Of a stretch of 64,000 bases of DNA, positions 306-57,100 are shown in pieces. The notes under the pieces were generated by a model. It made no database searches. It saw only the letters and a program-made list of their open reading frames with translations, and was not told where the DNA came from. The first letter of the stretch is position 1, and each line of letters starts with the position of its first letter. Location of the stretch: positions 106,084 through 170,083 of IMG/VR virus record IMGVR_UViG_3300028827_000129; one strand, given 5' to 3'. Source of the DNA: a virus. A program made the position numbers and the translations under genes.

Positions 306-1052
306 ATGTCAGGTAAATTACCTTATTCTAACAATACTGAACCTTTATTATCTCAATTTGATCCCTATCGCGAACAATCTTCTGGTATCACAGAAGATAA
401 GCACAAGCTTGATAAAATAGACGATGTTATTATTTATGACAAGGCTTCATATTCAGGAGTCGACATTAAATGTTTGGTCATGGGACCTCCAGGTGCAGCT
501 GAAGGAGCAGAAGAGGGATGGATAAAAGTACTGGGGGAAGTACAGACTGTTTCTTATCAAATCCATAGAGAGAAGGTCCCAGTTAGAACATTAGGCAGAA
601 GTGCGCCAAAAACGTATACGAAAGGTACTAAGACCGTTGCAGGGTCAATGATATTCACGCTATTTGATCGTCATGTTTTTAATTCAATGTTATTAGGATC
701 TAAGCTTTATGGTTCTGCTAAGGATACAGCAAATCCTTATGTTACTGTAGACCAATTACCGAGATTTGATTTTGTATTATATTTTGCCAATGAACGTGGT
801 AGTGAGTCGTTGCTTGCTATCTTAGATTTAGAAATTGTCAATGAGGGTGGTGTATTTAGTGTGAATGACATGATATCTGAAGCAACTATGAATTGGGTTG
901 CGCAGCATATTATGCCATTAAGGTCTTTAGATGAATATAAACGAGCAATTAATAGTAAGCAAGGGGCGGTTCAGAAGGGGAAGAGATTTTCAGACATAGT
1001 TAACCAATTAGGCTATAAAGAAGTTTTAGCCAGCAATAATCCATTTATTTAA
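306..1052 (+). CDS. Tail tube-like protein (paralogue 2)
   Basis: VQTVSYQIHREKVPVRTLG...TKGTKTVAGSMIF and DQLPRFDFVLYFANE...EIVNEG parallel the upstream ORF; tail-module position. Confidence 0.6.
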   Translation: MSGKLPYSNNTEPLLSQFDPYREQSSGITEDKHKLDKIDDVIIYDKASYSGVDIKCLVMGPPGAAEGAEEGWIKVLGEVQTVSYQIHREKVPVRTLGRSAPKTYTKGTKTVAGSMIFTLFDRHVFNSMLLGSKLYGSAKDTANPYVTVDQLPRFDFVLYFANERGSESLLAILDLEIVNEGGVFSVNDMISEATMNWVAQHIMPLRSLDEYKRAINSKQGAVQKGKRFSDIVNQLGYKEVLASNNPFI

Positions 1053-1059
1053 TCAAATT

Positions 1060-1803
1060 ATGACAGACGTAGTTAAGAGAGATATACCTGCAGCTAGATG
1101 GGATAACGACTTTTTTACTGGTGCCCAAGTAAATGTGTATTTTGGAGACGTTTGGGTAGACGACATTGTATCTCTAAGCTTTAGTTTAGAACAAACAAAG
1201 AGACCTATTTATGGTTATGCTTCTCAATATTATGATGCTGTTGCTAAGGGTAAAATTTCAGTAAGAGGCAATTTTACAATTAATTTTAAAGAAAATGGAT
1301 ATTTATATGTTATACTAGATTATCTGAAGAATAATTTTTATACTAAAGAAGAAAAAGGTGGTTCTTCAGAAACTTTGCAAAAAGCATTTTTTATGGAAAA
1401 GGCAGAGTCTGGTCGAGGTGATGCAAAGGTAATTTCTAGGAATATAGAAAATATTCTTGAGAAAAAATCTTCAGGAGCCGAAGGATTTGATAGATTAACA
1501 TATTTTTTAAATGCCGATATGTCTAAATTTGAAGATTTAGCTGAAGCATATGAAGATAGTGTATGGTCAGATGAAGGGGTTTCTGTAAAGACTATTGGAG
1601 GCATCAATAAAAAATACAAAAGACCAGATGAATTTGGCCCTTTTGATATTATTATTACTTACGGCGATATTAATGCCAGCAAGGAAGATCATACAGTAAA
1701 GAGGATTACAGGTGTTGAGTTATTGGGGGCGTCTCAAATAGTAAATTCGGACAGTGAGCCGATATATGAAGCATACCAATTTATAGCTCGCAATATTCTT
1801 TAG
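1060..1803 (+). CDS. Tail tube-like protein / tube initiator (paralogue 3)
   Basis: SFSLEQTKRPIYGY...KGKISVRGNF and DEFGPFDIIITYG...GVELLG...YQFIARNI carry the same signature as the two upstream ORFs. Confidence 0.6.
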   Translation: MTDVVKRDIPAARWDNDFFTGAQVNVYFGDVWVDDIVSLSFSLEQTKRPIYGYASQYYDAVAKGKISVRGNFTINFKENGYLYVILDYLKNNFYTKEEKGGSSETLQKAFFMEKAESGRGDAKVISRNIENILEKKSSGAEGFDRLTYFLNADMSKFEDLAEAYEDSVWSDEGVSVKTIGGINKKYKRPDEFGPFDIIITYGDINASKEDHTVKRITGVELLGASQIVNSDSEPIYEAYQFIARNIL

Positions 1804-1812
1804 GAGGTTTTT

Positions 1813-2235
1813 ATGTCTAAAGCAGAAAAAGATTTAGATGTCCAGGCTGAAGAGCAGGTAGAAGGTAGTAAAGAGGCAGTAGATCCTATTATGGCTGCAT
1901 TTGAGAAGATGGAGAATGGTCCATCTAAAGAGCAAATAGAGCTATGGAAAAATGAACATAATGGGGAGGTTTATATCTCCGCTTTTGATGAAGATGAAAT
2001 TTATGTTTGGAGACCATTGTACCGTCTTGAGTATAAGAATATTATCAAGATGGTTAAGGACCCAATTATGGCAGACGAGAAGATGCTAGAGAAGTGTTTA
2101 CTTTTTCCTAGAGTCACTCCAGAGTTTTTATCTATGACTAAAGCAGGTACTATTGAAACTATGGCTGCACAAATTAGGGAAGTTTCTAATTTTGTTAATC
2201 CAGAAACTGCCATTGGGCTTGTACGTAAGCTTTAA
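1813..2235 (+). CDS. Tail assembly chaperone
   Basis: Small acidic protein with a strong AGGAGG RBS, between the tube genes and the tape-measure slot; IELWK...YVWRPLYRLEY...KCLLFP...AGTI pattern. Confidence 0.6.
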   Translation: MSKAEKDLDVQAEEQVEGSKEAVDPIMAAFEKMENGPSKEQIELWKNEHNGEVYISAFDEDEIYVWRPLYRLEYKNIIKMVKDPIMADEKMLEKCLLFPRVTPEFLSMTKAGTIETMAAQIREVSNFVNPETAIGLVRKL

Positions 2236-2245
2236 AATGTAAAGG

Positions 2246-2755
2246 ATGCGTTTATTTGAAGAAAGGTATGGTATAGAATTCCAGGACGGGGAGTTTATAG
2301 TTTTTAAACTCCTCTCCTGGGGTCAATATAGGCGCTACAGAGAAATTTATTTTTCTAATCCTGATGCTCTTCCTGAAATAGAGGAAGAGATTTTTGATTT
2401 ATGCGTATATAACGCTCATTTATATGATAAAAACTATCTAAAAGCTGGGACTGTCTCTACTGTCGCATATGCAATACTTAAATTATCAGGCCCAAATAGT
2501 TTAAAAGACGTAGAAGAATCTTTAACAATAGCTAGAAATAATATTAGTGATGTTGGGTATCAATTGGCTGGATTTGTTTGCAAGGCATTTCCTGCATATA
2601 AATTAAGCGATATTGACGACTTAACGTGGCATGAATTTATGAATCTCGTTGCATTATCGGAGCAGATATTAGGTAAGGACATAGATTTTAATCAAAACCA
2701 ATCTATGCAGAACCAACATCAATACAACTATGTAAATAAGAAATTTCATAGGTAG
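2246..2755 (+). CDS. Second tail assembly chaperone (paralogue with C-terminal extension)
   Basis: FIVFKLLSWGQY...DLCVY...KAGTVSTVAYAILKLSG aligns by eye with the upstream chaperone; it has an extra helical C-terminal domain. Confidence 0.55.
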   Translation: MRLFEERYGIEFQDGEFIVFKLLSWGQYRRYREIYFSNPDALPEIEEEIFDLCVYNAHLYDKNYLKAGTVSTVAYAILKLSGPNSLKDVEESLTIARNNISDVGYQLAGFVCKAFPAYKLSDIDDLTWHEFMNLVALSEQILGKDIDFNQNQSMQNQHQYNYVNKKFHR

Positions 2756-2766
2756 GATTTTTTGTT

Positions 2767-5700
2767 ATGCCTCAACCTACTCCTTTAATCCCTGTTGATC
2801 CTGAAGAAAGAAAAAAGAAAGGGATGCCGTGGGGGGCTGCTACTACAGCAGCCCTTATTGCTGGGCATGATCTAATAGAGATTCCTCTTATTAAGAGGTG
2901 GTTTTCTGCTAGATCTGGAATAAGGAGCTCAAGATTAACTTATCTTAATTTAGGTCTTTTTATAGCCCCCAATCAGCGTCCTGCTGGTATACAAAGTTTT
3001 AGAGATTTAACTGGCCGTTCAGAAGCTCTCGTTAAAGATGTTATTTATGAGGGCATAAGGCGACTAGAAGAGACTCCTACTAGAATTTTCCGCACTTTTG
3101 AATTATCTTCTTTATTTTCGACCATTGTATTTAGGGACACTAGCGGTGCAGTTGCTAGGTTTTCTGGAGAAGAAGCCTTAAAGTTACGTAAATATGTTAC
3201 TCGTTTAGCCGGCAGAGATATTGGAGTAGAAGAAATAGCTGGCGGCATGAGAGTTATTAAAGGCTCTTTATACGGAGTCAATGTCAATGGAGAAATAGGC
3301 AAAGAGCCACTCGTCAAATTTGTAACATTCATGCAGCGCAAATGGACTCCGTATCATGAGAAAATTAAAGGAGCCAGGCAAGAAAGACTTTCTCATTACA
3401 GCAAATTAGCCAAAGAATACGAGGCTATGATTGCTGGAGAGGACTTTGGCAGAATAGCTGCACACAGGGGCGAAAGCGACTTTTTACTTTTGGTAGGTGG
3501 ACGTAATCGCTCTGAAAGTTCTATGCGCACAATCAATGCCTTTTTGAGAGTGCAAAGTAAGAAATTTTTTCATTTGCTTGACGATCCTTTTGAAGCTTTA
3601 CAAGAGATTACAGGCGTTGTTAGCAAAAGGTTAGGTCGCGGTTCTCGTCTTTGGGAAAAAATAGGCATTAGGGGTAAATTAGGTCTAGCAGGTGATTATT
3701 CTGGGTCTCTAGCTGAAATGTGGGCCAGATGGCTTTTGCCTGGCAAAGGTAAAATGGGATGGAGGCTTGGTGCAATTGGAAGCTTTGTAGCGCTGCCTTT
3801 TATTTATAAAATAGCAGAAGCGCATTTAAAGGTCCCTAACACCATTCTGGAGGAAGGCCCGACAGCAGCATTGGCCACCTTATATGCTAAGGGGGATATT
3901 TTAAGAGGTCAAGTTAGTGAAGCTTTAGGAATACAAAGCTTCATTGAAAAACAAGAAGAATTAGCGCCGGGATCTACAAAGGGCATAATGTCTTACTTAG
4001 CATTCCCTGCCTCGTTCGCTATGACGGGCGCTGTGGCCTCCGGAGCCCTTACCATGACCCATCGGTTAAGTAAGGGTATGTTAGGGGCTAGAGAGGAGGC
4101 TCAGGCCCTCAGAAGGCTTTCTGGGCCGCTAGGTAAGCTTATAAAGAAGAGTTTGCCGAGAGCTCATCGTTGGGCATATTACGGAGCTGCTATTGGAGCT
4201 ATTGCTGCTGCTCCATTTGCTTTGGGTGCTGCCTTAGCGACAGTATTTGGACGCAAGCCAGTGCAGCAGCGAAAAGAAGAATATGCAGGAATTAGAGAAA
4301 TACCAATCCGTAAAGGCAGATGGTGGGAAGCTGGAAGAACTCCTTATGAAGGCGGGCGCATTCTTACATATGCACCGCACTTTGTCGTAAGGGCCAGAAC
4401 TCACGCTAAAGAGAAGGCATTGTATGGAGAGTACTGGGATAAACCGATTACTCGACTATTTAAATCTATAGTTGATCCTTATTGGCTTGAGCGTATGCAT
4501 AATGAAGATAGACCATATCCAATATGGGGGCCATCTGATCCAGGGTTAGGATTTTTGGGTACAATATGGCAGCATACATTAGGGGCTCTATTCAAGCCGC
4601 CAGTTTATGTAAATCAGGACAAGTATATTACTGAATCAGGAGAATATATCGATAGAGACACTAATTTAAAATATGAACCATCCTATCGTTTAGGTGGAGA
4701 ATTACCAGATATGCCTGAGCCTAAGACTGGCTGGAAATATGCACTCTCAGAGATAAAGAGAAGGCTAGCTGATACATTTGGATTGACTGGTTTTGCCTTA
4801 GAGTCTGTAGAAGAGAAAATGACTGGCAGCACAGACCTATTTGAAGATAAAAGGTTTTTAGCTTCTTCTGCAGAACTAGATTCAACAGCTGCAGATTTCT
4901 GGGGATTGCACCTTGGCGGAGGTCTTACAACAACTGAAGCATTACGTAGGATCTATTTTAAAGAACGTCCTAATATAGAAGTTGTTAATCCTGCTGAAAA
5001 CAATATGCCATCATGGCTGCCAGGTGACGATTATATGGTTAATTTCCATACTGGAAATCCTTATACAAAAATCCCTATGGGTGAATATGTTTTGCCAGGA
5101 CCAGCATATGAGGAACTTCACCCAGAGTTAAAAGGTGTCCCTTATGAAGACTACCCGCTAATCCATAAATTGAATATTCTTAAGAATGTAGCTGTTTATA
5201 GTAAAGAATTTACTGAATATGCAAAGACGGCTAAACGTATTATAGCTGAAGGGAAAGAGGACCAGGCATATATAGAGCAGCTTAATAGTATTTTGGAGCA
5301 AGCTGCTCAAATGAAAAAACTTGAAGTGCAAGAGATCCCTGATGATAATATTATATCTTCTTATTGGAGTCTTTTAAATGAATCTGCTGCTAACCCTACA
5401 GAATATTTAACTCCTATTGCCCCTATTCATAAATTTGTCCATACAATGGGGCCTATAGATACATATAGAGATACGCAGATTCTTTCAAGTGAAGTTACTT
5501 TGTGGAATAAGCCTTATGAGCATTTTATAAAGCCTGCTATTAGACATTTGTTTGGTGTAGCATATGATGATTATGTTCCTAAAGAAGTAAGAGAAAGGCA
5601 GAATTTATCTGATTATTTTGAAGCTTTAAAATATATCAAATATAAAAATCTTCTTAACATTGCTAAAGAACGTGGGCTGCCAAGTTACTTATATGAAAGA

Positions 5701-6312
5701 AGAGTAAAATCTAATTTATTTGGCATTAGCTCTGCATCAAGAGAAGATGATTTATATTATGCATTACCAAGGATTGATAAAAAATTCTTTGAATTTTTTA
5801 TCAATGCGGAAGGGGAAGAACGCGAGGAGATCAGTAATTTAGTTTCTCCCATGATAGCTAGGGCCTATAATATATTTTGGGCAAAGCATGATGGAAAATC
5901 TTCGTATATTCCGGCATTTACAGCATCTGACGTAGAAGAATATTTGGAAGATAAACCGATTCCTGGACCTAATTGGATAGGCTGGGACAGTGATGTAGAT
6001 TTAGAAGATATAAAACTAAAGCTTCTAGAAAGAAATTTTGAAGATTTTACGGAGTATGACATTTGGGGGGACCAGATTAGAGCATCTAAAAGGAAGCCTT
6101 ATTTAGAAAGGGCTTTAGATGAGTTTAATGTCAAGAGGTCGAAAGCAGAAGTAAAGAAGCAAATAGAACAAATGTTATATGGCAATGGTTTAGAAAATGT
6201 AGAAGTTTTAGTCGATGATTATACTGGGGAAAATGTTATATTTTTTGAAGGGAAGGATTCTCAAGAAAAGTACCTGAGATCGCAGATGAGAGATATGGGA
6301 TTTTTTAGTTAA
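2767..6312 (+). CDS. Tape-measure-like / ejected membrane-associated virion protein
   Basis: 1181 aa immediately after the chaperones; basic Gly/Ala-rich helical N-half with several hydrophobic segments (e.g. YYGAAIGAIAAAPFALGAALATVFG); Pro/Trp-rich motifs in the C-half. Confidence 0.55.
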   Translation: MPQPTPLIPVDPEERKKKGMPWGAATTAALIAGHDLIEIPLIKRWFSARSGIRSSRLTYLNLGLFIAPNQRPAGIQSFRDLTGRSEALVKDVIYEGIRRLEETPTRIFRTFELSSLFSTIVFRDTSGAVARFSGEEALKLRKYVTRLAGRDIGVEEIAGGMRVIKGSLYGVNVNGEIGKEPLVKFVTFMQRKWTPYHEKIKGARQERLSHYSKLAKEYEAMIAGEDFGRIAAHRGESDFLLLVGGRNRSESSMRTINAFLRVQSKKFFHLLDDPFEALQEITGVVSKRLGRGSRLWEKIGIRGKLGLAGDYSGSLAEMWARWLLPGKGKMGWRLGAIGSFVALPFIYKIAEAHLKVPNTILEEGPTAALATLYAKGDILRGQVSEALGIQSFIEKQEELAPGSTKGIMSYLAFPASFAMTGAVASGALTMTHRLSKGMLGAREEAQALRRLSGPLGKLIKKSLPRAHRWAYYGAAIGAIAAAPFALGAALATVFGRKPVQQRKEEYAGIREIPIRKGRWWEAGRTPYEGGRILTYAPHFVVRARTHAKEKALYGEYWDKPITRLFKSIVDPYWLERMHNEDRPYPIWGPSDPGLGFLGTIWQHTLGALFKPPVYVNQDKYITESGEYIDRDTNLKYEPSYRLGGELPDMPEPKTGWKYALSEIKRRLADTFGLTGFALESVEEKMTGSTDLFEDKRFLASSAELDSTAADFWGLHLGGGLTTTEALRRIYFKERPNIEVVNPAENNMPSWLPGDDYMVNFHTGNPYTKIPMGEYVLPGPAYEELHPELKGVPYEDYPLIHKLNILKNVAVYSKEFTEYAKTAKRIIAEGKEDQAYIEQLNSILEQAAQMKKLEVQEIPDDNIISSYWSLLNESAANPTEYLTPIAPIHKFVHTMGPIDTYRDTQILSSEVTLWNKPYEHFIKPAIRHLFGVAYDDYVPKEVRERQNLSDYFEALKYIKYKNLLNIAKERGLPSYLYERRVKSNLFGISSASREDDLYYALPRIDKKFFEFFINAEGEEREEISNLVSPMIARAYNIFWAKHDGKSSYIPAFTASDVEEYLEDKPIPGPNWIGWDSDVDLEDIKLKLLERNFEDFTEYDIWGDQIRASKRKPYLERALDEFNVKRSKAEVKKQIEQMLYGNGLENVEVLVDDYTGENVIFFEGKDSQEKYLRSQMRDMGFFS

Positions 6313-6314
6313 TC

Positions 6315-9300
6315 ATGACTGAAAATAATGACTCTGGGCTAAGAAGTAGAATTCGTAATACTGCTGTTTTAGGTGCTGCTGTTGGCGGCAGTTGGCTTAG
6401 CTTGCAGTATCTTGCCACAAGAGGGGTACATCTTGGCAGAGCTTCAGTCGCTAGCAAAAGTGCAAAGAAAATTAAGACAGCTGTAGAAAGCTTTGATGCT
6501 AAAAAGGCCTCTGAAGAGATCTTAGCGCTTTTAGAGCACCCAGATTTGTTTGAGTATCAAAAAACTGCTGCTCATGCAGCAGCTATCAGCATGGCCAAAA
6601 AACGATCTGGTGTTGTGCGAGAGTTTTCTACATTATCTGACGCTATAGCTTATGGCGAAACTAATGTTTCATTCCAGAAAAACTTGTTAAGTGCTTCAAG
6701 AGAATTAGAGAAGACGTTATTTGAAGAAGTAAGACATAGGGAAAAGTATTTAAAATCTCCTTTACGTTTCGCTACTACAGATTATATTTCTAAGCCGTTA
6801 GTAAAGCAATCTTCTGGATTTTATCTTTTTGCCGAAAGGCGCGGATCTTGGTTTAACGATATAACTAAAGCTATTTCAGATATACCAGGGCTTAAGAATA
6901 GACAGGATATTAGCGCTTTAGCGCAAAGTATGGCGGATGTTGCAGCTTCTATAGCTGGCACGAGTAATATTTCTGTAAAGTTTTATGCTGCTGATATGCT
7001 GCACGGTGGTCAGATACAGAGAGAAATTATTGGTGTCGGGTTTCTCAGAAATAATACCAATGAAGCATATTTTCCTATTTTAACTGCTAGCAATAAATAT
7101 GTTGTTGGTAGAAACCAAACAACTATATATGCTCCCAAGCGTGTAGTAGTAGACCCAGATATGTTTGTAGAAACTCTTGGGGCTAAAGGACATGTAGGTT
7201 TAGACGTGTACCACATGTCTAAGTTTGTCGAACAATATAAGACTAATACCAATATAAACAAGCTCGCGCGAAGCACTCAATTAGATGTAATGAGGCATGC
7301 TGTTTATTCTGATGATTATGGTAGATTTAAGCCTTCTTTTACAAGAAATAGTGTACGTGACGTTATAAGGTCGTCAGGATTTGTTTTCCCGACAATTTCA
7401 CAGACTGCCTTTATTCAAAAAGCTGAGGAGTTAATAGAGAGGGGGGTTGACATTGGCGGGATTCCTGGTCAGCATATTGCTAAAAATACGTTATTCTTAA
7501 ATTTGAATAAATATTATATGTTTGGTGATACTGGCGATCGTGATAAGTTCATGCGAATGATAACGCGCGATGTATCTTTTGACCCAGGTCGAGCTCAGAG
7601 GCTAATGCAGCATGGAGTAGATATGAGACCTATTGTCATGTCTGCTGATTTAGCTAATTTGATGAAGCAAGAAAATGATTTTTTGCCTCGGTTTACTAGA
7701 CTTGGGGTTTCTGAAGATAGATTAAGGGAACTTTTAAAGAGACATGGGCTTGAAGACTTTATGCCCACTGAAGATGAGTTTATTGCTCCGCAAAGTATTA
7801 GAGGTCGCTATATTGCCGAATCTGCTGGTACATACACTCTTTCTTCTGATACGCCGATTAGAGAAGAGCTTATTAAGGTAGCGAAGGGAGAGCAGAGCGG
7901 CGATATCTTCTTGCATGAAGGTGCTTTTCTTGGGGTTTCTCCGGAGGGTCGGGCTGTCACAACTAAAACAGCTGGAGAAAAAATAGAGAGCGTTGTCATG
8001 AATGACGACGGGACTGTTAAGATAGTGACGCGTAGAAAAAATGTTGGTACAGATATAAAGTTTTATGGGATGAATACCAAGCTTACTGGAGGCCACCAGG
8101 GCTTTATATCTAACAAGAAGTTTCGCGCTTTAGTTAAAGATATTTTAAGGGAAGATGTCGGCATAGAAAGTGGCCATGTTATATCTAGATTAGCCAGAAA
8201 CATAGAGGGTATTTCTATAGGTGCCCCTAAATCATCGTATGGTCATGCCCAAGTTGAAATGCGTCTTGCTAATATACTGAGGATAATGGAGACGTCTGAA
8301 TTGAGCAAAGAACAGTTTGAGCATGTTAGCAGACAGTTATATGCCCTTGGGATTAAGGCTTCAAGTGACAACTTAGTTTCTAAGTATGTTGTTGAGAATA
8401 GTAGGCTTAATACAGACCAGATAGCGCAACGCCTAAATGCGATTGAATCGTCCTTAGAAGAATATACAGGCATTAAAATGGCTAAATTAAGTAATGTTCT
8501 TTTCCATGATATTGTCACACGCGGCGAACATCTTGTTTTGCAGGGCGCTGGTAAGCGTGCTACTCTTAGTAGGCAGACTCAGGCTGTCTTAGACACTCTA
8601 GCAAGAGACGAAGAGCTGGGGCAATATTATGCTGCTATTAAAGAAGATGTAGCATCTAGGATGAACCTTAAACCTGAGAATTTGCGTGAGGTAGCAAAAT
8701 CTTATTTAGCTGTGGATCGCATAGATGCTACTCCTGTGACGAGCGCTTATGAAAAGTATAAAAAAATGTTTGGTGGCGATATTGATGAATTTTTAGACTA
8801 TATTTATGATCAGGATATAGATGTAAGGCGCGAAAATTTGGCGGCGTTAGGTATTAAGGATGAAATGATTGGCCTTGGCACTACGCTAAGGACAGAAACA
8901 GGTGTATCATTATCGGCCCTTAGAATTAGTACAGATCCATCAGGGTATACTGGAATGATGTCGATAAGTAGCGGCCGTCCGTTTCATAAGTCTCTCGATA
9001 AGGCTGGTAGATCTTTGTTGAGGGCTGTACTTGTCGAAGGTGTTGAGGGCGAAATGCCATTTGCTGTAGAAGAGGCATTAACTAATTATATTGATGAGCT
9101 AACGAATGTAGCTGGCAAGAATTTGTTAAAAAGTGCTTATTCAGGGAAAGTGTTTGGGTCTGCGTTACTGAAGGCAGCTGGCTATAGAGGAGGCCGTATA
9201 GAAGGGTTTAATCAGGATTATGCGATTATTGTACATAGAGATATTTACCGTAAAATGCTTGAAGATATGGGGCTGCAAAGGGGTGAAATAGCGAGGAGGC

Positions 9301-10706
9301 TTAAGCAAGCTTCTAAGACTGGGGATTACGCGTTGTTAACAAAAGACCCTACATGGGGAAGGATGAAAACTCCAGTTGTTAGAGTTTATACAAATAAGGC
9401 TGCAGGCCTTAAAAAGATGTCGAAGCATAATGTATTGGTCAGCGAACGCATATTAGGGTTAATTGAATCAGAAGTGCCAGTAGGGACACATATTGATACA
9501 GACGGTGACATTTTAAATATTTTGCCGTTAAAAACTGCAACATCAAGAAATGCTGCAAAGGTATTACTTGGTCAAAAAGGTCAAGGTAAGCTGTTTGAAA
9601 TGATGGATGAATTCTATAAAAACATTCATGTTTCTACATTTGATGCTAAAAAGAGCGTGCAGTATTTTGATCCTGAAACTGGCCTGGTAAGGAAGGAAAT
9701 TTTAAAAGGGCAGTTTAGAAAAGCATTAATGTCAAAGTCTGAAGTTGGTAAGATTACAAACAAAATTGAGCTATTAAGGGCGTCATTATTAAATTCTCCT
9801 TCTGTAACGCCGAGACAACTTAGTTTGCTTGATGCTTGGTCAACCGAAATGATTGAGCGCGGTATTCTTGCTAAGCATATTTCACCTGAAGAGATTAGTA
9901 AGTACAATATTTTAAACGACCTAGAGTCTGCTGTTGAATCTTATAGAGACCCAGATCAGGCATTTAAGCATTTAGTTTCTGCTACTCGCAAGGTGTACAA
10001 TATCGCAGATATGCCAGAAGAGACAATTAGAAGTGCTTCTGTCATTAAAGATGCGAAAGGCAAATTGTTTAATATGGCTGCCTATAGAGAGCAAGAGGTA
10101 ATGCTCAGAGAGATGGCTAAGCAGATGGTTGCGTTTAAGAGTTCCGCTGAATACAGAGCATTAGAAGAAGTGCATAGCTTAGCTGGCAGTAATTTTAAGA
10201 GTAAGCAAAGATTTTTTGAGAGAGTTGCTGATCTATCTGATACATCTTCTGTTGGCGCTAGGGCAAGAGCTTTTGTTGGCATTCCTGAAGAAGGTGTTGG
10301 GGCGGCAAAGAAAGTCACGAAAGCCTTAGAAAAAGAAGCTGGCCTTTTTCAAGGTATAGCTATTTCTACTTTGCGCAAGTATAAGCGGCCTATAGGATTG
10401 GCTGTTGGTGTTTTGGCTGGTTTAGGAATGATGATGTCTAAACCAAGCGATTTAGATATAGATACTTTACAAACAGAACACGCTGAGCCTATGCCTGCTA
10501 AAGTTCCTATGGGTGGGCATAATCTACCTGTTGGACAACGTAACGGATATAAGATACGCATTCGTGCCAAAGGGGATGGGCATGATTTTGGTCATTTAGG
10601 TAGAAAAGCTGCAGATATTGCAGGTGGTGGGAGAGTTCATGTCTCCGTAAGTGATACAAGAAGAAAACTTTATAAAGAAGATTTAGAGAAGCTTATTTAT
10701 GCATAA
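6315..10706 (+). CDS. Tape-measure-position protein containing a putative single-subunit two-barrel (DPBB) RNA polymerase
   Basis: Ordered motifs: PTEDEFI (E486-D487), GTDIKFYGMNTK (K582/K589), SGKVFGS, LLTKDPT (K1010), HIDTDGDILNI (D1061-D1065, nt 9495-9509) and EVGKITN. Hydrophobic helices at both termini. Confidence 0.65.
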   Translation: MTENNDSGLRSRIRNTAVLGAAVGGSWLSLQYLATRGVHLGRASVASKSAKKIKTAVESFDAKKASEEILALLEHPDLFEYQKTAAHAAAISMAKKRSGVVREFSTLSDAIAYGETNVSFQKNLLSASRELEKTLFEEVRHREKYLKSPLRFATTDYISKPLVKQSSGFYLFAERRGSWFNDITKAISDIPGLKNRQDISALAQSMADVAASIAGTSNISVKFYAADMLHGGQIQREIIGVGFLRNNTNEAYFPILTASNKYVVGRNQTTIYAPKRVVVDPDMFVETLGAKGHVGLDVYHMSKFVEQYKTNTNINKLARSTQLDVMRHAVYSDDYGRFKPSFTRNSVRDVIRSSGFVFPTISQTAFIQKAEELIERGVDIGGIPGQHIAKNTLFLNLNKYYMFGDTGDRDKFMRMITRDVSFDPGRAQRLMQHGVDMRPIVMSADLANLMKQENDFLPRFTRLGVSEDRLRELLKRHGLEDFMPTEDEFIAPQSIRGRYIAESAGTYTLSSDTPIREELIKVAKGEQSGDIFLHEGAFLGVSPEGRAVTTKTAGEKIESVVMNDDGTVKIVTRRKNVGTDIKFYGMNTKLTGGHQGFISNKKFRALVKDILREDVGIESGHVISRLARNIEGISIGAPKSSYGHAQVEMRLANILRIMETSELSKEQFEHVSRQLYALGIKASSDNLVSKYVVENSRLNTDQIAQRLNAIESSLEEYTGIKMAKLSNVLFHDIVTRGEHLVLQGAGKRATLSRQTQAVLDTLARDEELGQYYAAIKEDVASRMNLKPENLREVAKSYLAVDRIDATPVTSAYEKYKKMFGGDIDEFLDYIYDQDIDVRRENLAALGIKDEMIGLGTTLRTETGVSLSALRISTDPSGYTGMMSISSGRPFHKSLDKAGRSLLRAVLVEGVEGEMPFAVEEALTNYIDELTNVAGKNLLKSAYSGKVFGSALLKAAGYRGGRIEGFNQDYAIIVHRDIYRKMLEDMGLQRGEIARRLKQASKTGDYALLTKDPTWGRMKTPVVRVYTNKAAGLKKMSKHNVLVSERILGLIESEVPVGTHIDTDGDILNILPLKTATSRNAAKVLLGQKGQGKLFEMMDEFYKNIHVSTFDAKKSVQYFDPETGLVRKEILKGQFRKALMSKSEVGKITNKIELLRASLLNSPSVTPRQLSLLDAWSTEMIERGILAKHISPEEISKYNILNDLESAVESYRDPDQAFKHLVSATRKVYNIADMPEETIRSASVIKDAKGKLFNMAAYREQEVMLREMAKQMVAFKSSAEYRALEEVHSLAGSNFKSKQRFFERVADLSDTSSVGARARAFVGIPEEGVGAAKKVTKALEKEAGLFQGIAISTLRKYKRPIGLAVGVLAGLGMMMSKPSDLDIDTLQTEHAEPMPAKVPMGGHNLPVGQRNGYKIRIRAKGDGHDFGHLGRKAADIAGGGRVHVSVSDTRRKLYKEDLEKLIYA

Positions 10707-13700
10707 TAACTACTTCAAAATAAACGATATTGAATTAGCAGTTTCACCGTCCAATATTCGTGTAGATAAAAGTACAAAGAATATAAAAATTCCCATTGTA
10801 CGCGAGTCAGAAGCGGTAAAGAACCGTAGTGGACACGGTGACATAAACGTGTCTTTTGATGTAATATTTTCATACAACGAAAATATTACATCATCATCTA
10901 AACATAATGACATCAAGAATGACTTATTGAAGATAGTAGCTCAGCTACAGTTAACTCCATTTTTCATAGTAGAAAATGAATTTGTTACTAAATCTATAAA
11001 GCCAGAGTACCAAGATTCAGAGCCTTTAATGTTGGTGCTCAATAATATGTCTATCTCTACTTCTCCTGAGTTACACAATTCCATCATTGCCCAATTTAAT
11101 TGTTTTTATGTAGAGCATTCTGCATTTACTCCATTTTTGTTTTTCAAAAGAACGGAGACATCTGGGGCGGATGAGAAGCCAGTAAAAATCAGCGAAAGTG
11201 GGGCATGGAAGGCATTTTACAAACCGTATTGGGATCGATTGAGAAGTATGGCTCCGTCATCCTTTAATGGGAGTTGTCATTTTCTTTTTCCTGTATTAAT
11301 AAACGAGGATGGTAATGTAACTTTTGGCACAACAGGGTTTGATATCGATGGGACACAGGTCCCGGTGTCTGTTACTGTGAATTTCTATAATCGCCTAGCA
11401 GTAATGCCTTTTATAGGTCTTGAATATCCAGCTTATCAGTACATGGGTGGATCAGATAGAGAGGTTTTTATAACAATTGAAGATGTTAGTGGGCGAGACC
11501 AAAAGTTTAAAGACTTGCTTAAGTTGTTACAGCATTTTAATCAACTTGCTATAAATGATAGACAAACAGCTGGCAATGATGCAATAGTTGTAAAAAATGA
11601 TATTCTAAATATGCTTGGAATAGAAGAGGTTATTTGTGAAAGCGTTTCAGTAGAGACTCATCCGTCTGAACCAGAGACTTCAATCATTAATTTACATTTA
11701 TTGTCTCATAACATAGATAAAGTAAAAGAAGCAGAAAGTCTCGAACGCGAAGAATATAATACTGTTGAGTCATTAGTTGAAGAGATTATAGATAACTTCA
11801 TTAATTATACAGACGCATCTATTGTAAGGCGTAAAGTGACAGATTCTGTATATGATGATACGTTTTTGTTAAATTATGATTTTGAAAGAAGTGTTTTTGT
11901 GATGACATCTGGCATACCAGATTTGCCAGCTCCATTAGACTCATTATTTGAAGATTTTAAGAAGACTTTATCAAACATATATTCAGGATCTATAGTTTAT
12001 AAATTGCGTGATGATTTTTATGATTTTATGAATCATGTTGACGACGCTGTTTTTGGGATTAAGACTAAATTAGGCGTTGGTCCTTCTATTTATAAAAATA
12101 AAGATAATGAAGCAAATAGTGCGGCAAGACGTGTTCTTACTGATTTTGCCTTTAAGGCATTTCATGTTTTGAAGGATTACCCAGATGCTTATCCTGAAAT
12201 GAAAATTATAGCAGAGAAAGTCGACTATGAACTGAAGCATGGGATGAGAAAAAATGTCCAGCCGTGCTATCCTGATATAGTCCCAGATGATATCAATAAA
12301 AACCCAGACGATTACTTTTTTTACAGTGGTTCGCTGAAAGAAATAATTAAAGAAGCGAAATTGTTTGGTGCAGATGCTATTTCTAAAACATTTGATGCAG
12401 TTGAAGACTTTACTGACAAGAATGGCATCCACTGGGATTTTTCTGGTCTTTCTAGTGGTGACAAGGCGTCGATTAATAATATTAAGAGTTCATTAAGCGG
12501 CGATGGCGTAACAATTACAGATGGTAGGCCGGCTGAATTTATTTCTAAGCATAAGAATCAGGGTAGATTTACAAAAACTTCCATTGTCGATAAGGAGTTA
12601 TTCCTTGACGGCTATAATGACACATCTATGTCATTAAAAGCTGAAATGAATGCTACCCATCGATTCGATAAGGCTTCATTTAAATCACAGTTTGAATTAA
12701 TTGATTTCCCGGATGATTTTATGACCTTTAGAAAGGCATACCCAACATTTCGTTTATATTTTATTGAAGAATATTCTCAAAAAACAAGAATGCGTAAATT
12801 AGACGATAAGTTTGTCTATAGAGCAATAAAAGAAATTAGAGTTATAAGATCTAGGAAAAACCCGATAGATACTGCAATTATCCAATTGAGTAATGTAGAT
12901 GGATCATTTTATATTAGAAATTTTAAGCGCAATGACCTAAAGGGTACATATGCAAAAGAGCTTGTCCGTGGGAAATATGACTATAGAGGGCATGACGTTT
13001 ATTCATCCGACAATAAAAAAGACAATTTATTAGATGAAAAGCCTATCTTCCAAGAGGGTTCTGTAATCCAGATACGATTGGGATATGATAACAACCCAGA
13101 TAAATTGACTACGGTTTTAAATGGCAAAATAACAGAAATAGACGGTGACGGGTTTGGTATTATTACGATTGTTGTTCAAAGTTTTGGGTATGAACTCTTG
13201 GAAGATACTTGGGGGACTCCTGGCGATGGCATGAGTCTTGGCGGATGGTTTAATAATACAACTCCTTCTATTATCACGGAGATTTTGAGCAGTCCTTCTA
13301 TTACACACTTTGGCAGGTGGACTTATGGATATACTAAAGAAGTAGATCCTGATGAAATTGAGCGTAAAGCAAGGCATTCTATGTTGCCGAACTTTATCGT
13401 AAGGCATATTTACAGATGGATCGATACGCCCAAGGATGACAATATCTTCGCTCCTTATGAAAGCTTTTATCGTAAGTATATAGAAGATTTTGCTATATTG
13501 CGTGGTTGGAAAGATTATTATTCATATGGATATACAACTTGGGATATATTGAAAGACATGGAGCGTAGGTGGCCTGGGTATGTATGTCAGCCAGTACCTT
13601 ATGAAAACAGAATGACATTGTTTTTCGGTATCCCTAGCATGGGGTATTGGTTTAGGGATGACAGCTATATAGATAAAATGGAACGAGAGTCTACGTTAGC

Positions 13701-14829
13701 ATCTTTACAAAGGAAATACAAGTCTATCAGGTCATCAATTGAGGCTGCTGACTCTTTTAGTAAGAAAGGTATTCATGGGGTTTCGGAAGAGGCGTATAAA
13801 ATCGCCGATAGAGTTATTAGAAAAGTAGGGCGGTGGAAATCTTTCCGAGATTATCATATGTTAACTTCTGAACATGATATTTTATCGAATGGAGTTAAGA
13901 CTTCTTCAAAAAATACATACAACGGCGTAAGAATTATATATGATAATGATTTTTGGAGAGAGGAAGAATTTGATATAAACAATTTACAATCAGAATTTAC
14001 CCTTAAGCCAAATAAGCATATTCCTGATGAGGAGATAACATATCAAGACTTTTTTGAGGCTAATGTTATTGGAGATGATGGGGCAAGAGTTTGTGCAATT
14101 TCAAGGTTATTAGATGGTCTAAGAGACTTGTATACAGGAGAAATAGCTTTAATAGGCAACCCAAGAATTAAACCTTACGACATATGTTTTATTTACGATT
14201 CATATAACGACATAGCTGGTCCAGTCGAAGTCGAGCAGGTTGTTCATATATTTAATCAAGAGGATGGGTTTATTACATTATTAACTCCTGATTTATGCGC
14301 GTATGCAACAGAATATGCATCTAGTACTTTTATAAGCGGTGTTGGTACAACGTTTATGAAAGTCTGGGATAAATTAGCGAATGCTACCGACAAACTAATA
14401 GACAAGTATAAAACTGCGATAGTTAATGACGATACTTTTCTCAAGACTGGGATGATTGGTGTAGGTGCCTTTACTGGAGATAGGGTGATACAAACTTCGT
14501 TAGCTGCTATGTTTACTCCATCCTCGATGGCTATCTTGAGTATAGGCAGTTTATTTATGCTTAATGTGCTTTATGATTGGGATGTTGGTCGTTATCCTAT
14601 TCAGGTATTTCCTCTGTTATTTAAAGATAAACCTTATATTTTAGGTCTCCCAGATTGGTCAGAAACTAGCTTGTGGCAAGATATTTCTGGTGAATGGAAG
14701 TTCCTTACCTCTGGCGTTAAGAAGTTTTGGGAATCTGAGATTAAAGAGCCTTCTAAACAATTTGGTGCGTTTAATATTTTAAGTGAAAGGTTCAAGAGAT
14801 TTCTTGGCGAGATGTTTCTTGGTAACTAG
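10699..14829 (+). CDS. Baseplate hub protein (gp27/gpD-like core with large N-terminal extension)
   Basis: DTAIIQLSN...IQIRLGY...VLNGKITEI...IVVQSFG and YTGEIALIGNPRIKPYD...VEQVVHIF...GFIT are typical hub motifs; the gene follows the tape-measure slot. Confidence 0.65.
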   Translation: MHNNYFKINDIELAVSPSNIRVDKSTKNIKIPIVRESEAVKNRSGHGDINVSFDVIFSYNENITSSSKHNDIKNDLLKIVAQLQLTPFFIVENEFVTKSIKPEYQDSEPLMLVLNNMSISTSPELHNSIIAQFNCFYVEHSAFTPFLFFKRTETSGADEKPVKISESGAWKAFYKPYWDRLRSMAPSSFNGSCHFLFPVLINEDGNVTFGTTGFDIDGTQVPVSVTVNFYNRLAVMPFIGLEYPAYQYMGGSDREVFITIEDVSGRDQKFKDLLKLLQHFNQLAINDRQTAGNDAIVVKNDILNMLGIEEVICESVSVETHPSEPETSIINLHLLSHNIDKVKEAESLEREEYNTVESLVEEIIDNFINYTDASIVRRKVTDSVYDDTFLLNYDFERSVFVMTSGIPDLPAPLDSLFEDFKKTLSNIYSGSIVYKLRDDFYDFMNHVDDAVFGIKTKLGVGPSIYKNKDNEANSAARRVLTDFAFKAFHVLKDYPDAYPEMKIIAEKVDYELKHGMRKNVQPCYPDIVPDDINKNPDDYFFYSGSLKEIIKEAKLFGADAISKTFDAVEDFTDKNGIHWDFSGLSSGDKASINNIKSSLSGDGVTITDGRPAEFISKHKNQGRFTKTSIVDKELFLDGYNDTSMSLKAEMNATHRFDKASFKSQFELIDFPDDFMTFRKAYPTFRLYFIEEYSQKTRMRKLDDKFVYRAIKEIRVIRSRKNPIDTAIIQLSNVDGSFYIRNFKRNDLKGTYAKELVRGKYDYRGHDVYSSDNKKDNLLDEKPIFQEGSVIQIRLGYDNNPDKLTTVLNGKITEIDGDGFGIITIVVQSFGYELLEDTWGTPGDGMSLGGWFNNTTPSIITEILSSPSITHFGRWTYGYTKEVDPDEIERKARHSMLPNFIVRHIYRWIDTPKDDNIFAPYESFYRKYIEDFAILRGWKDYYSYGYTTWDILKDMERRWPGYVCQPVPYENRMTLFFGIPSMGYWFRDDSYIDKMERESTLASLQRKYKSIRSSIEAADSFSKKGIHGVSEEAYKIADRVIRKVGRWKSFRDYHMLTSEHDILSNGVKTSSKNTYNGVRIIYDNDFWREEEFDINNLQSEFTLKPNKHIPDEEITYQDFFEANVIGDDGARVCAISRLLDGLRDLYTGEIALIGNPRIKPYDICFIYDSYNDIAGPVEVEQVVHIFNQEDGFITLLTPDLCAYATEYASSTFISGVGTTFMKVWDKLANATDKLIDKYKTAIVNDDTFLKTGMIGVGAFTGDRVIQTSLAAMFTPSSMAILSIGSLFMLNVLYDWDVGRYPIQVFPLLFKDKPYILGLPDWSETSLWQDISGEWKFLTSGVKKFWESEIKEPSKQFGAFNILSERFKRFLGEMFLGN

Positions 14830-42458: not shown

Positions 42459-44348
42459 ATGCCCAAATTACCTTATTTTAATTTATTTGAACTAACAGAC
42501 AAACAATTACTTAACCCAATTGAATTATATCCACCAAGGTCTAAAAATTTAAGACCTTCTGAAGCTTCTATTATTAATAGGGTTACTGGGGAGCCATCAG
42601 GGAAATGCGCTAGGGCTGTTTATTATAGGCTCATGGACGCTCCTATTACAGATCCGCCATTGCCGAAGATGTACTATACTTGGATGATGGGGAAGCTTTT
42701 TGAAGATAGATTAGTAGAAGAGTGGAAAAAGATGGGCTTATATGTAGCTAATTCTGTTAGGTTTTATAATGGAAGATACCATTTGTCCGGCGAATTAGAC
42801 TGCGTGATTAAACATCCAGACATCCCTGATCAACTAATAGGACTAGAAGTAAAAACTGGATATGGTTATAATTATGAAAAGCAAGTAATAGGCACAATTA
42901 ATACAATGGGGCAGCCTAAGATTGAGAACTTATTACAGGCCTCAATATATTTAAATGAATTTAAGCATTCTATTGCTATGTTTAAAATCCCGTGTATGAC
43001 AAGAGATTCTATGAAAAGAGCGGAGTTTGATATAGAATTAATTGATGGAGGCAAGAGGGTAACAGTAAATGGTAAGGTTCAACATGCCTTCTTGATAGAA
43101 GATATTTATAATCGCTTTGATTATATGTGGGAGCATTATGAAAAACAAATTATTCCTCAAAGAGACTACATGCTTAAATGGGATGATGAAACCATAGAAC
43201 GCAAATATGATTCTGGAGATTTATCTGAAAGTGCCTATAAGAAATTTAAAGGCGCTAGGAGGCCAGATACACGTGAAAAGTACCGTCCTGGCGATTGGCA
43301 GTGTTTTGCTCCTAGAACATTAGTGTGGATGTCTAATGGTGAAATGAAGACGATCAAAGACATAAAAGTAGGAGATGAAGTTGTCAGCATTGATGGTCCT
43401 ACAAAAGTAGTTAAAGTAGGGAGTAAGACGACTAATAGTAAAATGGTTACAGTTAAGCCAGCAGGCACACTTGGTGTGGATTGTACTGAAGATCATAAGT
43501 GGTTGATTGGGTCTTGGGACAATTGGGATGAATTTTGTCGCATGGAAACGATTAACCCTAAATTAATGCAGGCAAAGGATATTATTGCTTTTGATGGTAA
43601 AGAAAATATAGACAGGGTAGACGTAGTCTTTATTCCTGTTATTGATTTTTCGTATGAGTCAGATTTAACCATAGAACTATGTGAATTTTTAGGTTATTAT
43701 GCAGCTTTAGGGGACTTAGAAGATCTCAAATATGATAGAGTGACTTTTGTTTTAGACTCTGATAACATGGCCGTTGTAGACAAGATCGTTGAGTTAGGCA
43801 TAAATTTATCAGATAAAAATTCTTGCAACATTGCCTTGACCCATGATGTAGATGGCAAAGAAATTTTGAAAATAATTTTCAGATCTAAAAAATTATTAAA
43901 TTATGTGAGAAAAAATATTATTGGAGACAATAATGAAAATAAAACACTGAGCCACAATATCATGGGCTTGGATCATTGGTCTACAGACGTTTTTTTAAGT
44001 GCTGTTGCTGCTGGACATCAGAATATCGTTAAAGTGGCATCTAAAATTTTAAGCTTACAATATCAACAACTTTTTTGGAAAGTTGATGTCCCAGTTGTAG
44101 TGAAACATATTGACGGCATTGGATATTCGATACAGTTTACTGTTCTTGAAAGTGTAAAATTAGTAAGAGTTTTCAATAAAAAATTTGCAGCATTAAGAAT
44201 AGAAGATGTTATAAGTACAGAAAAGACAGATAAAGTTTACGATATAGAAGTTGATAGTACACATCATGTATTTGCAACAAGTGGAGGATTAGCCAGCAAT
44301 TGCAGTTATTGTCAATATAAAACTTACTGCTGGTCTAGCGACAAATAA
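42459..44348 (+). CDS. Cas4-like PD-(D/E)xK Fe-S exonuclease, intein-containing
   Basis: RPSE...KCARAVYY, G..FE, SGELDC, LEVKTG and QASIY; after intein removal the C-terminus reads DWQ-CSYCQYKTYC (296-aa extein). Confidence 0.8.
   Translation: MPKLPYFNLFELTDKQLLNPIELYPPRSKNLRPSEASIINRVTGEPSGKCARAVYYRLMDAPITDPPLPKMYYTWMMGKLFEDRLVEEWKKMGLYVANSVRFYNGRYHLSGELDCVIKHPDIPDQLIGLEVKTGYGYNYEKQVIGTINTMGQPKIENLLQASIYLNEFKHSIAMFKIPCMTRDSMKRAEFDIELIDGGKRVTVNGKVQHAFLIEDIYNRFDYMWEHYEKQIIPQRDYMLKWDDETIERKYDSGDLSESAYKKFKGARRPDTREKYRPGDWQCFAPRTLVWMSNGEMKTIKDIKVGDEVVSIDGPTKVVKVGSKTTNSKMVTVKPAGTLGVDCTEDHKWLIGSWDNWDEFCRMETINPKLMQAKDIIAFDGKENIDRVDVVFIPVIDFSYESDLTIELCEFLGYYAALGDLEDLKYDRVTFVLDSDNMAVVDKIVELGINLSDKNSCNIALTHDVDGKEILKIIFRSKKLLNYVRKNIIGDNNENKTLSHNIMGLDHWSTDVFLSAVAAGHQNIVKVASKILSLQYQQLFWKVDVPVVVKHIDGIGYSIQFTVLESVKLVRVFNKKFAALRIEDVISTEKTDKVYDIEVDSTHHVFATSGGLASNCSYCQYKTYCWSSDK
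43302..44300 (+). mobile_element. Intein (333 aa) with a degenerate LAGLIDADG homing endonuclease region
   Basis: Block A CFAPRTLVWM, block B CTEDHKW, block F VYDIEV..HHVFA, block G GLASN|C; remnants FLGYYAALG and FLSAVAAG. Confidence 0.9.
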
Positions 44349-54124: not shown

Positions 54125-57100
54125 ATGGCTAAAAATATAGTACCAGCAATAAGTAATGTCCTCATTAACTTTGATGGCACATCTGTATCTTTTTCTGAAA
54201 ATGGATTGCGATTTGACTTAGAAGGTAGTGCCTGTGGGCTTTTGGACCAAGATCTAAGTGGTACTTATCCTGACAATCCTGCTTTTGCAACAACTTGTAA
54301 ATTATCAACTGGTATTGGTTGTGATGGAAAATGGGCATACCTTGAGAAAGATCTTTCTATATTAACCGTTAAACCATCTGTCATAAAATTAACATATGCA
54401 TCCCCGGAAATTGTTGGTTCTACACCAACGGATTACGGAGATTATGGTGGCACTGGGTTTATAATTAGCAATGGAAGTATGCAAATTTTTATTAAATTTA
54501 TAAACAATTCGAATGCTCCAATCCAGTATATGAAAAATAATGGTACCTGGGGAGTTATTACAGATGATAATAATATGTCAACTTGGTGGAATAATCGCCA
54601 GTTAGACCAGTATTGGGAATTTGATCTTTCAGCTTCTAGTGGCCCATACGCCGGGATTGTTGGATGTATAATTGATGGTGTACAACGTATCGCTAGCCCA
54701 ATAGCAGATTCATTATGCCCCGCTACTATTCCTGCAGGTATTAGAGTTTTTGCTGACAGAGGTACAAATGCAACAGTTTACACTACAGCAAGTATTGGCA
54801 AATTAATATTAAGTGCTCCTGGGGCATCATATACATATTGCGATGGCATAGCTGGACAAGCAAATGATTTTACGCAGAGTGGCAATGGTACTGTTACTGA
54901 CGATGTCCAAGAAGAAAATAGGACATGTTTAAAATTAGATAGCGGGGCTGTCGGAGACAGTATAGAAATTTCTAGACAAATAGCTGGAACATTCCGTGGG
55001 ATTTCTGATTTTTGGACACGCATAGAAGCTAAAATGCTTGTAGGTGCGTTTAATGATGGAGATACTTTAGAGGTTACATTATCTAATGGTTTAGCAGAGT
55101 TTAGTATTGAATTTGCTACAGATGGTATTTACGCCCTTAAGTCAGATCGTACTAAGCTGAAAGTATATGATTCTCCACCAGTGTCTTCTTTTAATGACTG
55201 GTATATACATTGGTGCCCAGGAGAGTTATCTGCGGATGGATGTGGTATACGCGGGATATATTTAGGGGATAAAAAAATAGTTTCAGGTATAGCATCTTCT
55301 GTAGCAGGACGTAACGAAAGTGATTGGATATATACGCCTGAAGTAGACTATGATGGGACTATATCTCTTGCAGCTGCTGGTTGGACAGAAGGAGGTACAG
55401 CAACAGCAGTTACTAGAACTCCAAATGTTTCATTTGATGGTACAAATTGTCTTAAATATTCTATTAGTCCATCTAATACTGGTTATATTTTAGATAAAAT
55501 TTTACCAGCCAATAGGGCAGTTAACCAAAAAAGAATCAAGTGGGAAGCCAGATACCAGTTTGTTAACCATTCCTTCACATCTGCTGATCGTTGTGCTTTG
55601 CAGTGGAATAATGGTGCTTATTGGCATACAATAATGGACAATAGGCGTACTCTTAGTCCAGCCTGGAGGTATGCAGACGATTATGCTGACGGAGGATATG
55701 GGCAGTGGAGATTTTACGACGGTAAAAAGAGTTATTTTTTTGAACTCCCTGGGTCTATCACTACCTTGAATATTGGATGGATTCATGAATCTGTCATATT
55801 TGACAATGAAAATAAATTTATATTATCTTACAGTATAAATGGATATGAATATTTAAAAGGTCCGCTCCCTTATGACAGCCCTCCTGTAGACAATACTAAT
55901 ACATTACGTACATTATTTTACGGCGATTCAGGTAGTGGCTATGATCTTTATATTGATTTCATAAAATTATCGTATGGGAATACAGCCCCTTCAGGATATG
56001 GAACAGCTCTATCTGATGGGTTTGTAAAAATAACATTAAAAGGTAATACTGCAAATAGGCAAGTATTTTTTGATAAACTTTATTTTGGCCGTGACGGTAA
56101 CCTTTTTTTGCCAACGCCTGCAATATATACTGAAGAAAACGATACATCTTACTTTGACGTTTTATCACAAGGTAGGATGGAATGTGACGCTCAAGATCCG
56201 GCATGGACCGAATTATATAAAATTGGTAACCCAACTTTTTCAGTAGACGCGGATCCAGATGATCGTACTTATGTAGAAGAATATAGCGTCTACGGAGATT
56301 ATAGATCATATGTAGGTCAAAAAGTTTTAAGAGTAGACTTATGGAATAATGACTATCCATTATTTTATATAGATGGTCATTTTAGTGATTTATCGGAAAG
56401 AAATATTACAGACGGGTCTGCTGTTTTAGGCGGCTATACGGTCCCATATCTTGTAGCTGCCAAGGAAACTGGCACGGACTTTCCTTTTGATGAAAATGAA
56501 GGCTATTGGATTAATACTGACACAGCCTGCACTCTCCTATTATCTAATTTTAAATTCGACCAAGGGTCTCCAACAAACTATTTAACGGTAACAGATGGTG
56601 TTGAACTAGATGCCACTTGGGATTCTTCTGGTTCGTATGGTGTTTATACCAAAACAGACAACGATACTTTGTCTGCTGACAATTCTACTGGATGGTGTCA
56701 TTTTGTTGTTGGAGATAATGGAACAACAGATTCAAAAATTAATTATGACAAAACTTTTGGGGACTTATCAACTGCTACATATGTAAGAATACGTACAACT
56801 ATACATTTAATAAGCCTTGGTGATATTTATGCCGGTGATTTCTTTGTCACATGTGGCAATGGTAACTTTGTGTTCTATTTATGGTTAATAGATCCTGGTA
56901 CTGGTCCAGAAGTTGGCTTCTACGACAATAGTGTCGGATATAAAAAAGTAGCAAGTTTAAGTTACAATAAAACATATACTTTAGAATTTATCATTGATGC
57001 ACAAAGTGGCTCTGAGGAAGTACTAGAATTTTGGATGGATGAACATGATGGCAATTCGTTGCAGCTAAAAGCTTACAACTTAGGGACACCTCGTCTTGCT

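Follow-up and report, generated by a model that had tools for sequence, protein, structure and literature searches.

Single-chain RNA polymerases that carry both double-psi beta-barrels (DPBBs) of the two-barrel enzymes are known from phages. In Thermus phage P23-45 the polymerase gp96 forms the N-terminal fifth of a tape measure protein of 5002 amino acids (aa) in a non-contractile tail, lacks a clamp and joins its barrels by a connector of ~67 aa (PMC10770324), and phi14:2, a crAss-like phage, delivers the single-chain two-barrel enzyme gp66 from its virion (PMC10770324). Phage 0305phi8-36 encodes a "hypothetical tape measure", gp146, which was named mainly from its length (PMC2147016). Here we analyze the protein that fills the gp146 slot in a 64,000 nucleotide (nt) stretch of phage DNA (the window; positions 106,084 to 170,083 of IMG/VR record IMGVR_UViG_3300028827_000129, a complete 170 kb phage record with terminal repeats). 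It is the product of open reading frame (ORF) 6315-10706 on the + strand, which we verified to be a single uninterrupted frame of 1463 aa, as an earlier reading made from the letters alone (the sequence-only reading) had stated. That reading had proposed that the gene in the tape-measure slot of a contractile tail codes for a highly diverged RNA polymerase with two barrels in a single chain, and conservation in homologues, family profiles and the predicted fold support it: the product is almost certainly a highly diverged two-barrel RNA polymerase in one chain.

The polymerase core of the slot protein

Direct searches with the query gave no match in Pfam, PHROGs, the PDB, protein libraries of 5.8 billion and 1.84 billion entries, phage genomes, viral contigs or Atlas features. 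A DxDGD motif is weak evidence by itself, because one arises in 1.8% of shuffles of the 1463-aa protein, so support from outside the query was needed. With the upstream gp145-like gene as bait more than 300 loci were fetched, whose slot proteins fall into ~97 clusters at 70% identity (gp36 of Acinetobacter phage ME3 included). The first set of loci, which was not selected for the motif, yielded 71 slot proteins that are full-length and non-redundant. DxDxD stands 360-580 residues from the C-terminus in 58 of them, versus 3.8 expected; the other 13 lack it, and whole clades have lost it. In an alignment of 60 rows (59 homologues plus the query) the three aspartates (D1061, D1063 and D1065 of DTDGD, aa 1061-1065) are present in 59/59 homologues, P1012 in 58, E or Q at position 1181 in 58, K639 in 47, G1145 in 46 and H1188 in 41. 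The query's E486-D487-E488, at the site of the MgB ligand (Rpb2 D837), corresponds to family columns that are E or D in 24/43 and 27/43 members, with the register unsure. A profile built without the query from 33 family rows chosen for the motif matches query aa 458-1461 with E 1.8e-32 (at Z=1e5) and the aspartates in register (reversed decoys reach at most 4 bits), and in the slot proteins of phages KLEB27-3 and WH1 an R-x-P motif, DxDGD and the later motifs succeed one another as they do in the query. The motif positions given in the sequence-only reading (E486-D487 at nt 7770-7775, K582, K589, K1010-D-P1012, DTDGD, G1145 and K1187-H1188) were all confirmed, as was the conservation of DxDGD in homologues that it had named as a check.

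A family profile of the catalytic region found the beta' subunit of the AR9 non-virion polymerase in the PDB (E 5.5e-8); the PDB sequences that match the family profile with E<10, 43 in number, are without exception RNA polymerase largest subunits. A single-sequence AlphaFold model was uninformative (predicted local distance difference test, pLDDT, 39), and a model of aa 431-1301 made with the 60-row alignment reached pLDDT 74.8 and a predicted template modelling score (pTM) of 0.73. It is a compact two-barrel structure and not an extended helical chain devoid of a DPBB pair, the outcome that the sequence-only reading had named as contrary to its proposal. When the model was searched against 48,161 chains the top 16 structural matches were all two-barrel polymerases; the best was QDE-1 (Z 12.1, 357 residues aligned, root-mean-square deviation (rmsd) 7.7, model residues 23-856 on chain residues 693-1151), and others were vaccinia and Pol I subunits (Z ~11), RDR2 (Z 10.5) and P74-26 gp62 (Z 10.3). 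P23-45 gp96 comes further down the list (Z 7.1, 278 aligned, model 25-810). The catalytic barrel superimposes on isolated DPBBs over 86 residues at rmsd 1.8-1.9. The QDE-1, RDR2, gp62 and gp96 superpositions each cover both barrels, the beta-type barrel aligning from model residue 23 to QDE-1 from residue 693 and to gp96 from residue 501, and this support is moderate in that parts of the second barrel have pLDDT <50. Chains of beta'/Rpb1 align from aa 797, clamp included, over 330-390 residues. In the Atlas the closest models are fusions that combine an Rpb2_6 with an Rpb1_2 domain in one chain (template modelling (TM) score 0.42-0.46), and the best BFVD match is ME3 gp36 (E 3e-13). The TM scores below 0.5 and the high rmsd are expected because this is a very diverged long chain, and the assignment rests on sequence profile, motifs and fold pointing the same way. 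The PF05183 (RdRP) profile matched nothing in the genome and no family member, the positive control of the genome search being silent as well. Other BFVD matches were a "minor tail protein" of Siphoviridae sp. ctnpt50 (A0A8S5SD80, TM 0.40) and an uncharacterised protein of Microcystis phage MaMV-DC (A0A075BUT7, E 5.5e-6); on these model matches both are possible further hidden polymerases.

How much of the chain is polymerase? Family homology spans about aa 156 to the chain end, the polymerase body runs from about aa 160 to 1290, and only ~150 aa at each end lie outside the family-conserved body, with a C-terminal anchor of only ~150 aa. Judged from these spans nearly the whole chain is polymerase, and it is not fused to a long tape measure. 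The region N-terminal to the beta-type barrel (aa 1-440) is probably a beta-like N-terminal lobe, the identification of the bridge-helix-like and trigger-loop-like helices is an inference from motif spacing, and the beta-rich insert, in which G540 and G545 are kept in >90% of members, is putatively an SBHM (sandwich-barrel-hybrid motif) or flap-like element. Hydrophobic helices had been proposed at both ends of the chain. The C-terminal one stands (Kyte-Doolittle peak 1.74, with a peak in 86 of 89 family members); its N-terminal counterpart occurs in half of the family and is marginal in the query (1.21 over 17 aa).

The family is variable outside this core. Its members range from 1239 to 3222 aa, partly through inserts inside the catalytic barrel; in four slot proteins of 2395-3222 aa (L024, L037, L040 and L043) inserts of ~700-1400 residues, which may be inteins or cargo domains, separate the R-x-P region from DxDxD. 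The slot proteins of 0305phi8-36, Moorella phage MTATph1 and one further clade are without the polymerase core, and those of loci L071, L078, L082, L084, L086, L087, L089, L172 and L001 have neither DxDxD nor a polymerase-core match, some of them retaining the C-terminal module. The slot genes L004:13004-20308, L005:10593-18140 (- strand) and L003:10513-14442 belong to the KLEB27-3/WH1/MTATph1 set. The KLEB27-3 and WH1 proteins start with a DEDDh-exonuclease-like region, and the MTATph1 slot gene has an RNase_T match (E 5e-5). Behind this gene come a transposase and several fragments, and the final fragment bears the C-terminal module. Slot-protein length correlates weakly with the length of the upstream protein (rho 0.28, not adjusted for kinship).

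Like P23-45 gp96, the query is a single-chain two-barrel polymerase with DxDxD encoded in a tail module, and the injection and early transcription that are probable for gp96 would be shared. It differs in belonging to a contractile tail, in that the polymerase makes up most of the 1463-aa chain and ends in a C-terminal anchor with a separate predicted partner, and in its ~290-aa barrel connector with a clamp-like part (aa 797-940). No sequence similarity to gp96 was detected, and two features that define the gp96 type, fusion to a long tape measure and a flat clamp-less architecture, are absent. The phi14:2 enzyme gp66 is a podovirus head ejection protein within a polyprotein; unlike the query it is not the product of a tail-module gene, it is not among the top structural matches, and crAss-like models were weak matches in the BFVD search (E ~1e-3). 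QDE-1, RDR2 and YonO-like enzymes also have both barrels in one chain, QDE-1 being the best whole-chain match, whereas the beta-rich insert in the beta-type barrel is absent there (PMC7824862) and the query in addition has a switch-2-like sequence that matches beta'. The phiKZ/AR9 and cellular beta/beta' enzymes supply the best family-profile match (AR9 beta') and an aligning clamp region; they are multisubunit, whereas the query has one chain in beta-then-beta' order with a virion-type C-terminal module.

Packaging in and delivery from the virion

Is this polymerase carried in the virion? In 0305phi8-36 both gp145 and gp146 carry the annotation of virion proteins, based on mass spectrometry. 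Of the query, gp146 retains only the C-terminal module (Table 1); it has no DxDxD and no polymerase-core match, and its phage has a separate YonO-like gp99. That gp146 keeps the C-terminal module alone suggests, at the level of sequence, a slot design with a fixed C-terminal anchor and exchangeable cargo. A predicted complex between the last 60 aa of the polymerase and the C-terminus of the gp145-like protein scored 0.61, with 0.00 for the best control (among solved complexes 58 of 80 attain the score mark, among mismatched pairs 2 of 110; these counts apply roughly here, given our own alignments). The runs share at least 88% of contacts, the partner has pLDDT of at least 69, and the predicted interface on the gp145-like protein is aa 1140-1169. 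The PDB contains no sequences like this C-terminal pair. The two C-terminal modules were also compared as possible paralogues and are not detectably paralogous (hhalign probability 5%). The model makes it plausible that the last 60 aa of the polymerase bind the gp145-like C-terminus and that this pairing is the tether to the virion.

We infer the following course for packaging, positioning in the tail lumen, membrane tethering and early-gene transcription. The polymerase would be synthesized late, along with the products of the tail genes, and incorporated into the virion, where its last 60 aa would pair by strand exchange with the gp145-like C-terminus to form a two-chain tape-measure/ejection unit. 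Because a folded clamp-bearing 160-kDa enzyme cannot pass the tail tube, it would be stowed in an unfolded or partly folded state; most likely it would run along the tail, its C-terminal module lying at the end near the hub. Upon sheath contraction both chains would leave the virion, the hydrophobic helices would enter the host membrane and the polymerase would refold on the cytoplasmic side, there to transcribe the first-entering genes and possibly to pull DNA in, as proposed for P23-45 gp96. We consider virion delivery of an active DNA-dependent RNA polymerase likely and, given packaging, put its location in the tail lumen at a little over even.

The polymerase might instead be packaged as an internal head (ejection) protein or as baseplate cargo, the gp145-like protein alone setting tail length; it would still be an injected polymerase, and this alternative concerns location only and shares its function with the tail-lumen explanation. 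In its favor, it is the gp145-like gene that comes right after the chaperones, where a tape measure is canonically encoded, and its product has more hydrophobic segments, the tape-measure name of gp146 is based mainly on length, the family varies in length partly by inserts in the catalytic barrel (above), and the head is the source of the polymerases that crAss-like and N4-like phages eject (PMC10770324). Against it stand the constant place of the gene between the gp145-like gene and the hub, its translational coupling and the prediction that its product pairs C-terminally with the gp145-like protein. In addition, 486 nm divided by the 2537 aa of gp146 is 0.19 nm per residue, which is nearer the usual tape-measure value than the 0.25 calculated for gp145. 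We regard a head or baseplate location as rather unlikely.

Catalytic residues and transcription context

Several results weigh against an active virion polymerase. The only slot protein with virion mass spectrometry, 0305phi8-36 gp146, has no polymerase core; the profile of the beta-type barrel has no PDB or Pfam match, and this barrel is modelled less confidently than the catalytic one; and an exact-word search of the genome and its early intergenic gaps for a repeated phage promoter returned only ribosome-binding sites. In the active site K1010 replaces the arginine of R-x-P (Rpb1 R446, P448; R in 56 and K in 3 of the 59 homologues), and the column of the second family lysine aligns to Q595 in two alignments, with context scores of 0.53 for Q595 and -4.21 for K589. 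Two of the eight polymerase residues listed as "invariant" (PMC2919709) thereby deviate or may deviate in the query.

The sequence-only reading had named K582 and K589 as the two catalytic lysines. The pair is indeed conserved in the family (K582 in 49/59 homologues, the second lysine in 40/43) and K582 holds in the query; for the second site K589 fits by spacing (5-9 residues in 41/42 members) and Q595, which aligns better, by context. This loop is poorly modelled (pLDDT <50), and the Q595 codon, CAG, is one base from AAG. In yeast Pol II both lysines (Rpb2 K979 and K987) are critical and R446A is viable (PMC2919709). Because the second lysine may be Q595 and the yeast lysines are critical, the query copy may be a weakened one.

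In the extreme case the family would be an active injected polymerase of which the query copy is weakened or dead and kept mainly as a structural or ejection protein. Besides Q595, the long branch of the query in the family tree (2.3, its placement without support) and the loss of the motif elsewhere in the family agree with this. The query nevertheless retains all three aspartates, P1012, K582, K639, G1145, E1181, K1187 and H1188, has K589 at the usual spacing and has an intact fold in the AlphaFold model, and a copy kept mainly for structure is in our view improbable.

Alternatively, the enzyme could be a non-virion polymerase that acts in the producing cell, in late transcription as YonO does or in making primers or other RNA, and merely be located in the tail operon. 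No sigma-70 region-2 protein and no second polymerase-like ORF were found in the genome, so late transcription needs some enzyme, and the clamp-bearing fold resembles non-virion enzymes. Yet the gene lies midway along the late tail operon, 2 nt past the preceding stop codon, and its product would come too late to switch that operon on. The end of the chain has a conserved hydrophobic helix and a module that it shares with a virion protein; we think this role very improbable. An ordinary helical tape measure with chance motifs, to which the absence of direct matches in Pfam, PHROGs, the PDB and the large protein libraries and the uninformative single-sequence model might point, is hardly credible and is refuted computationally by the invariant DxDxD, the profile match to beta' and the compact two-barrel model.

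The tail module, the genome and the wider family

The genes are in the order sheath, three tube paralogues, two chaperones, gp145-like gene, polymerase gene, gp147-like hub and baseplate J, the sheath, tube and chaperone genes being named by comparison with 0305phi8-36 and ME3, and the location of the ORF between the tail chaperone/TMP-like gene and the hub, as first read, is confirmed. With a sheath gene upstream and the hub and baseplate J downstream, the tail of the source phage is, on its gene content, contractile. Both flanking genes have matches in the Bacillus phages 0305phi8-36, KLEB27-3, WH1 and Edson, in Acinetobacter phage ME3 and in Moorella phage MTATph1, and a large gene fills the equivalent slot in each of these genomes; by its position between the gp145-like gene and the hub and its shared C-terminal module the query belongs to the 0305phi8-36-like gp146-slot proteins. 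The gap from the gp145-like stop codon to the slot gene is -17 to +25 nt in 83 of 87 loci. The three tail-tube paralogues lie at window 306-1803 and genome 105734-106351; their family is labelled "major head protein" by PHROGs and "tail tube" in the 0305phi8-36 notes.

Table 1. Coordinates of the polymerase gene, its parts and its neighbors in the window.
Feature	Position (nt)	Strand	Remarks
Two tail-tube paralogues and two tail chaperones, upstream	306..2755	+	
gp145-like protein	2767..6312	+	several hydrophobic segments; translationally coupled to the polymerase gene
gp146-slot protein, single-chain two-barrel RNA polymerase (almost certain)	6315..10706	+	1463 aa; profile, model and structure matches
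N-terminal region, aa 1-440	6315..7634	+	aa 156 onward weakly homologous to family N-terminus, E 4.5e-4 (query-free profile)
Beta-type barrel (DPBB-B)	7677..8300	+	acidic motif aa 485-488, K582, second basic site K589 or Q595, K639
Beta-rich insert in beta-type barrel, SBHM/flap-like (putative)	7815..8042	+	five strands, mostly pLDDT 83-93
Clamp-like connector between barrels, aa 797-940	8703..9134	+	alignment of beta'/Rpb1 chains starts at model residue 367, on their residue ~20
Catalytic beta'-type barrel (DPBB-A)	9144..9530	+	K1010, P1012, D1061/D1063/D1065
Catalytic Mg-binding DxDxD loop	9495..9509	+	
Bridge-helix-like and trigger-loop-like helices	9693..9878	+	G1145; E1181, I1184, K1187, H1188; model helices 697-729, 736-758
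Conserved C-terminal hydrophobic helix, aa 1358-1378	10386..10448	+	candidate membrane anchor
C-terminal alpha/beta module, aa 1403-1463	10521..10703	+	shared with gp146 of 0305phi8-36, E 3.8e-13
gp147-like baseplate hub	10699..14829	+	overlaps end of polymerase ORF by 8 nt

Elsewhere in the genome, positions 70000-80000 have a GC content of 47-53% (~35% elsewhere) and lie at the minus-to-plus switch of gene strand; this is a candidate for the first-entering region, in which no shared promoter word was found. A (CAT)n run is present at genome 69870-69915. A 1076-aa protein with a DEDDh-exonuclease-like motif at its start is encoded just before the head genes (genome 84093-87323) and is possibly another injected protein. 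A 2293-aa ORF without a PHROGs match stands among small structural-looking genes (window 54125-61006), and a 629-aa protein whose N-terminal part has a Cas4-like exonuclease match is encoded next to a primase-helicase (window 42459-44348).

We found no paper on the slot-polymerase family, nor on KLEB27-3 or WH1, in a literature search that was thin on subscription journals, and ME3, WH1 and 0305phi8 are not named in the P23-45 supplements. A 2021 survey of jumbo phages gives no polymerase for the 0305phi8-36-like group beyond the YonO-like enzymes of two phages (PMC7824862), and because only these were listed the ME3, WH1 and KLEB27-3 enzymes would have been missed. The slot proteins add a large unannotated family to the two-barrel polymerases and, if delivery is true, would extend virion-delivered polymerases to contractile-tailed phages. 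Tentatively, and with somewhat more doubt than confidence, one may picture a lineage-wide two-chain tape measure in which a clamp-bearing polymerase is stored extended in a contractile tail, held by a C-terminal strand-exchange clip that accepts other cargo, and refolds into an enzyme tethered to the membrane, which transcribes the genome and draws it in. Since ME3 (gp36), WH1 (gp95) and KLEB27-3 (gp34), all of which carry the motif, are cultured, the packing, tail passage and refolding of such a large enzyme are directly testable, and the predicted C-terminal pairing pinpoints the part of the chain to delete.

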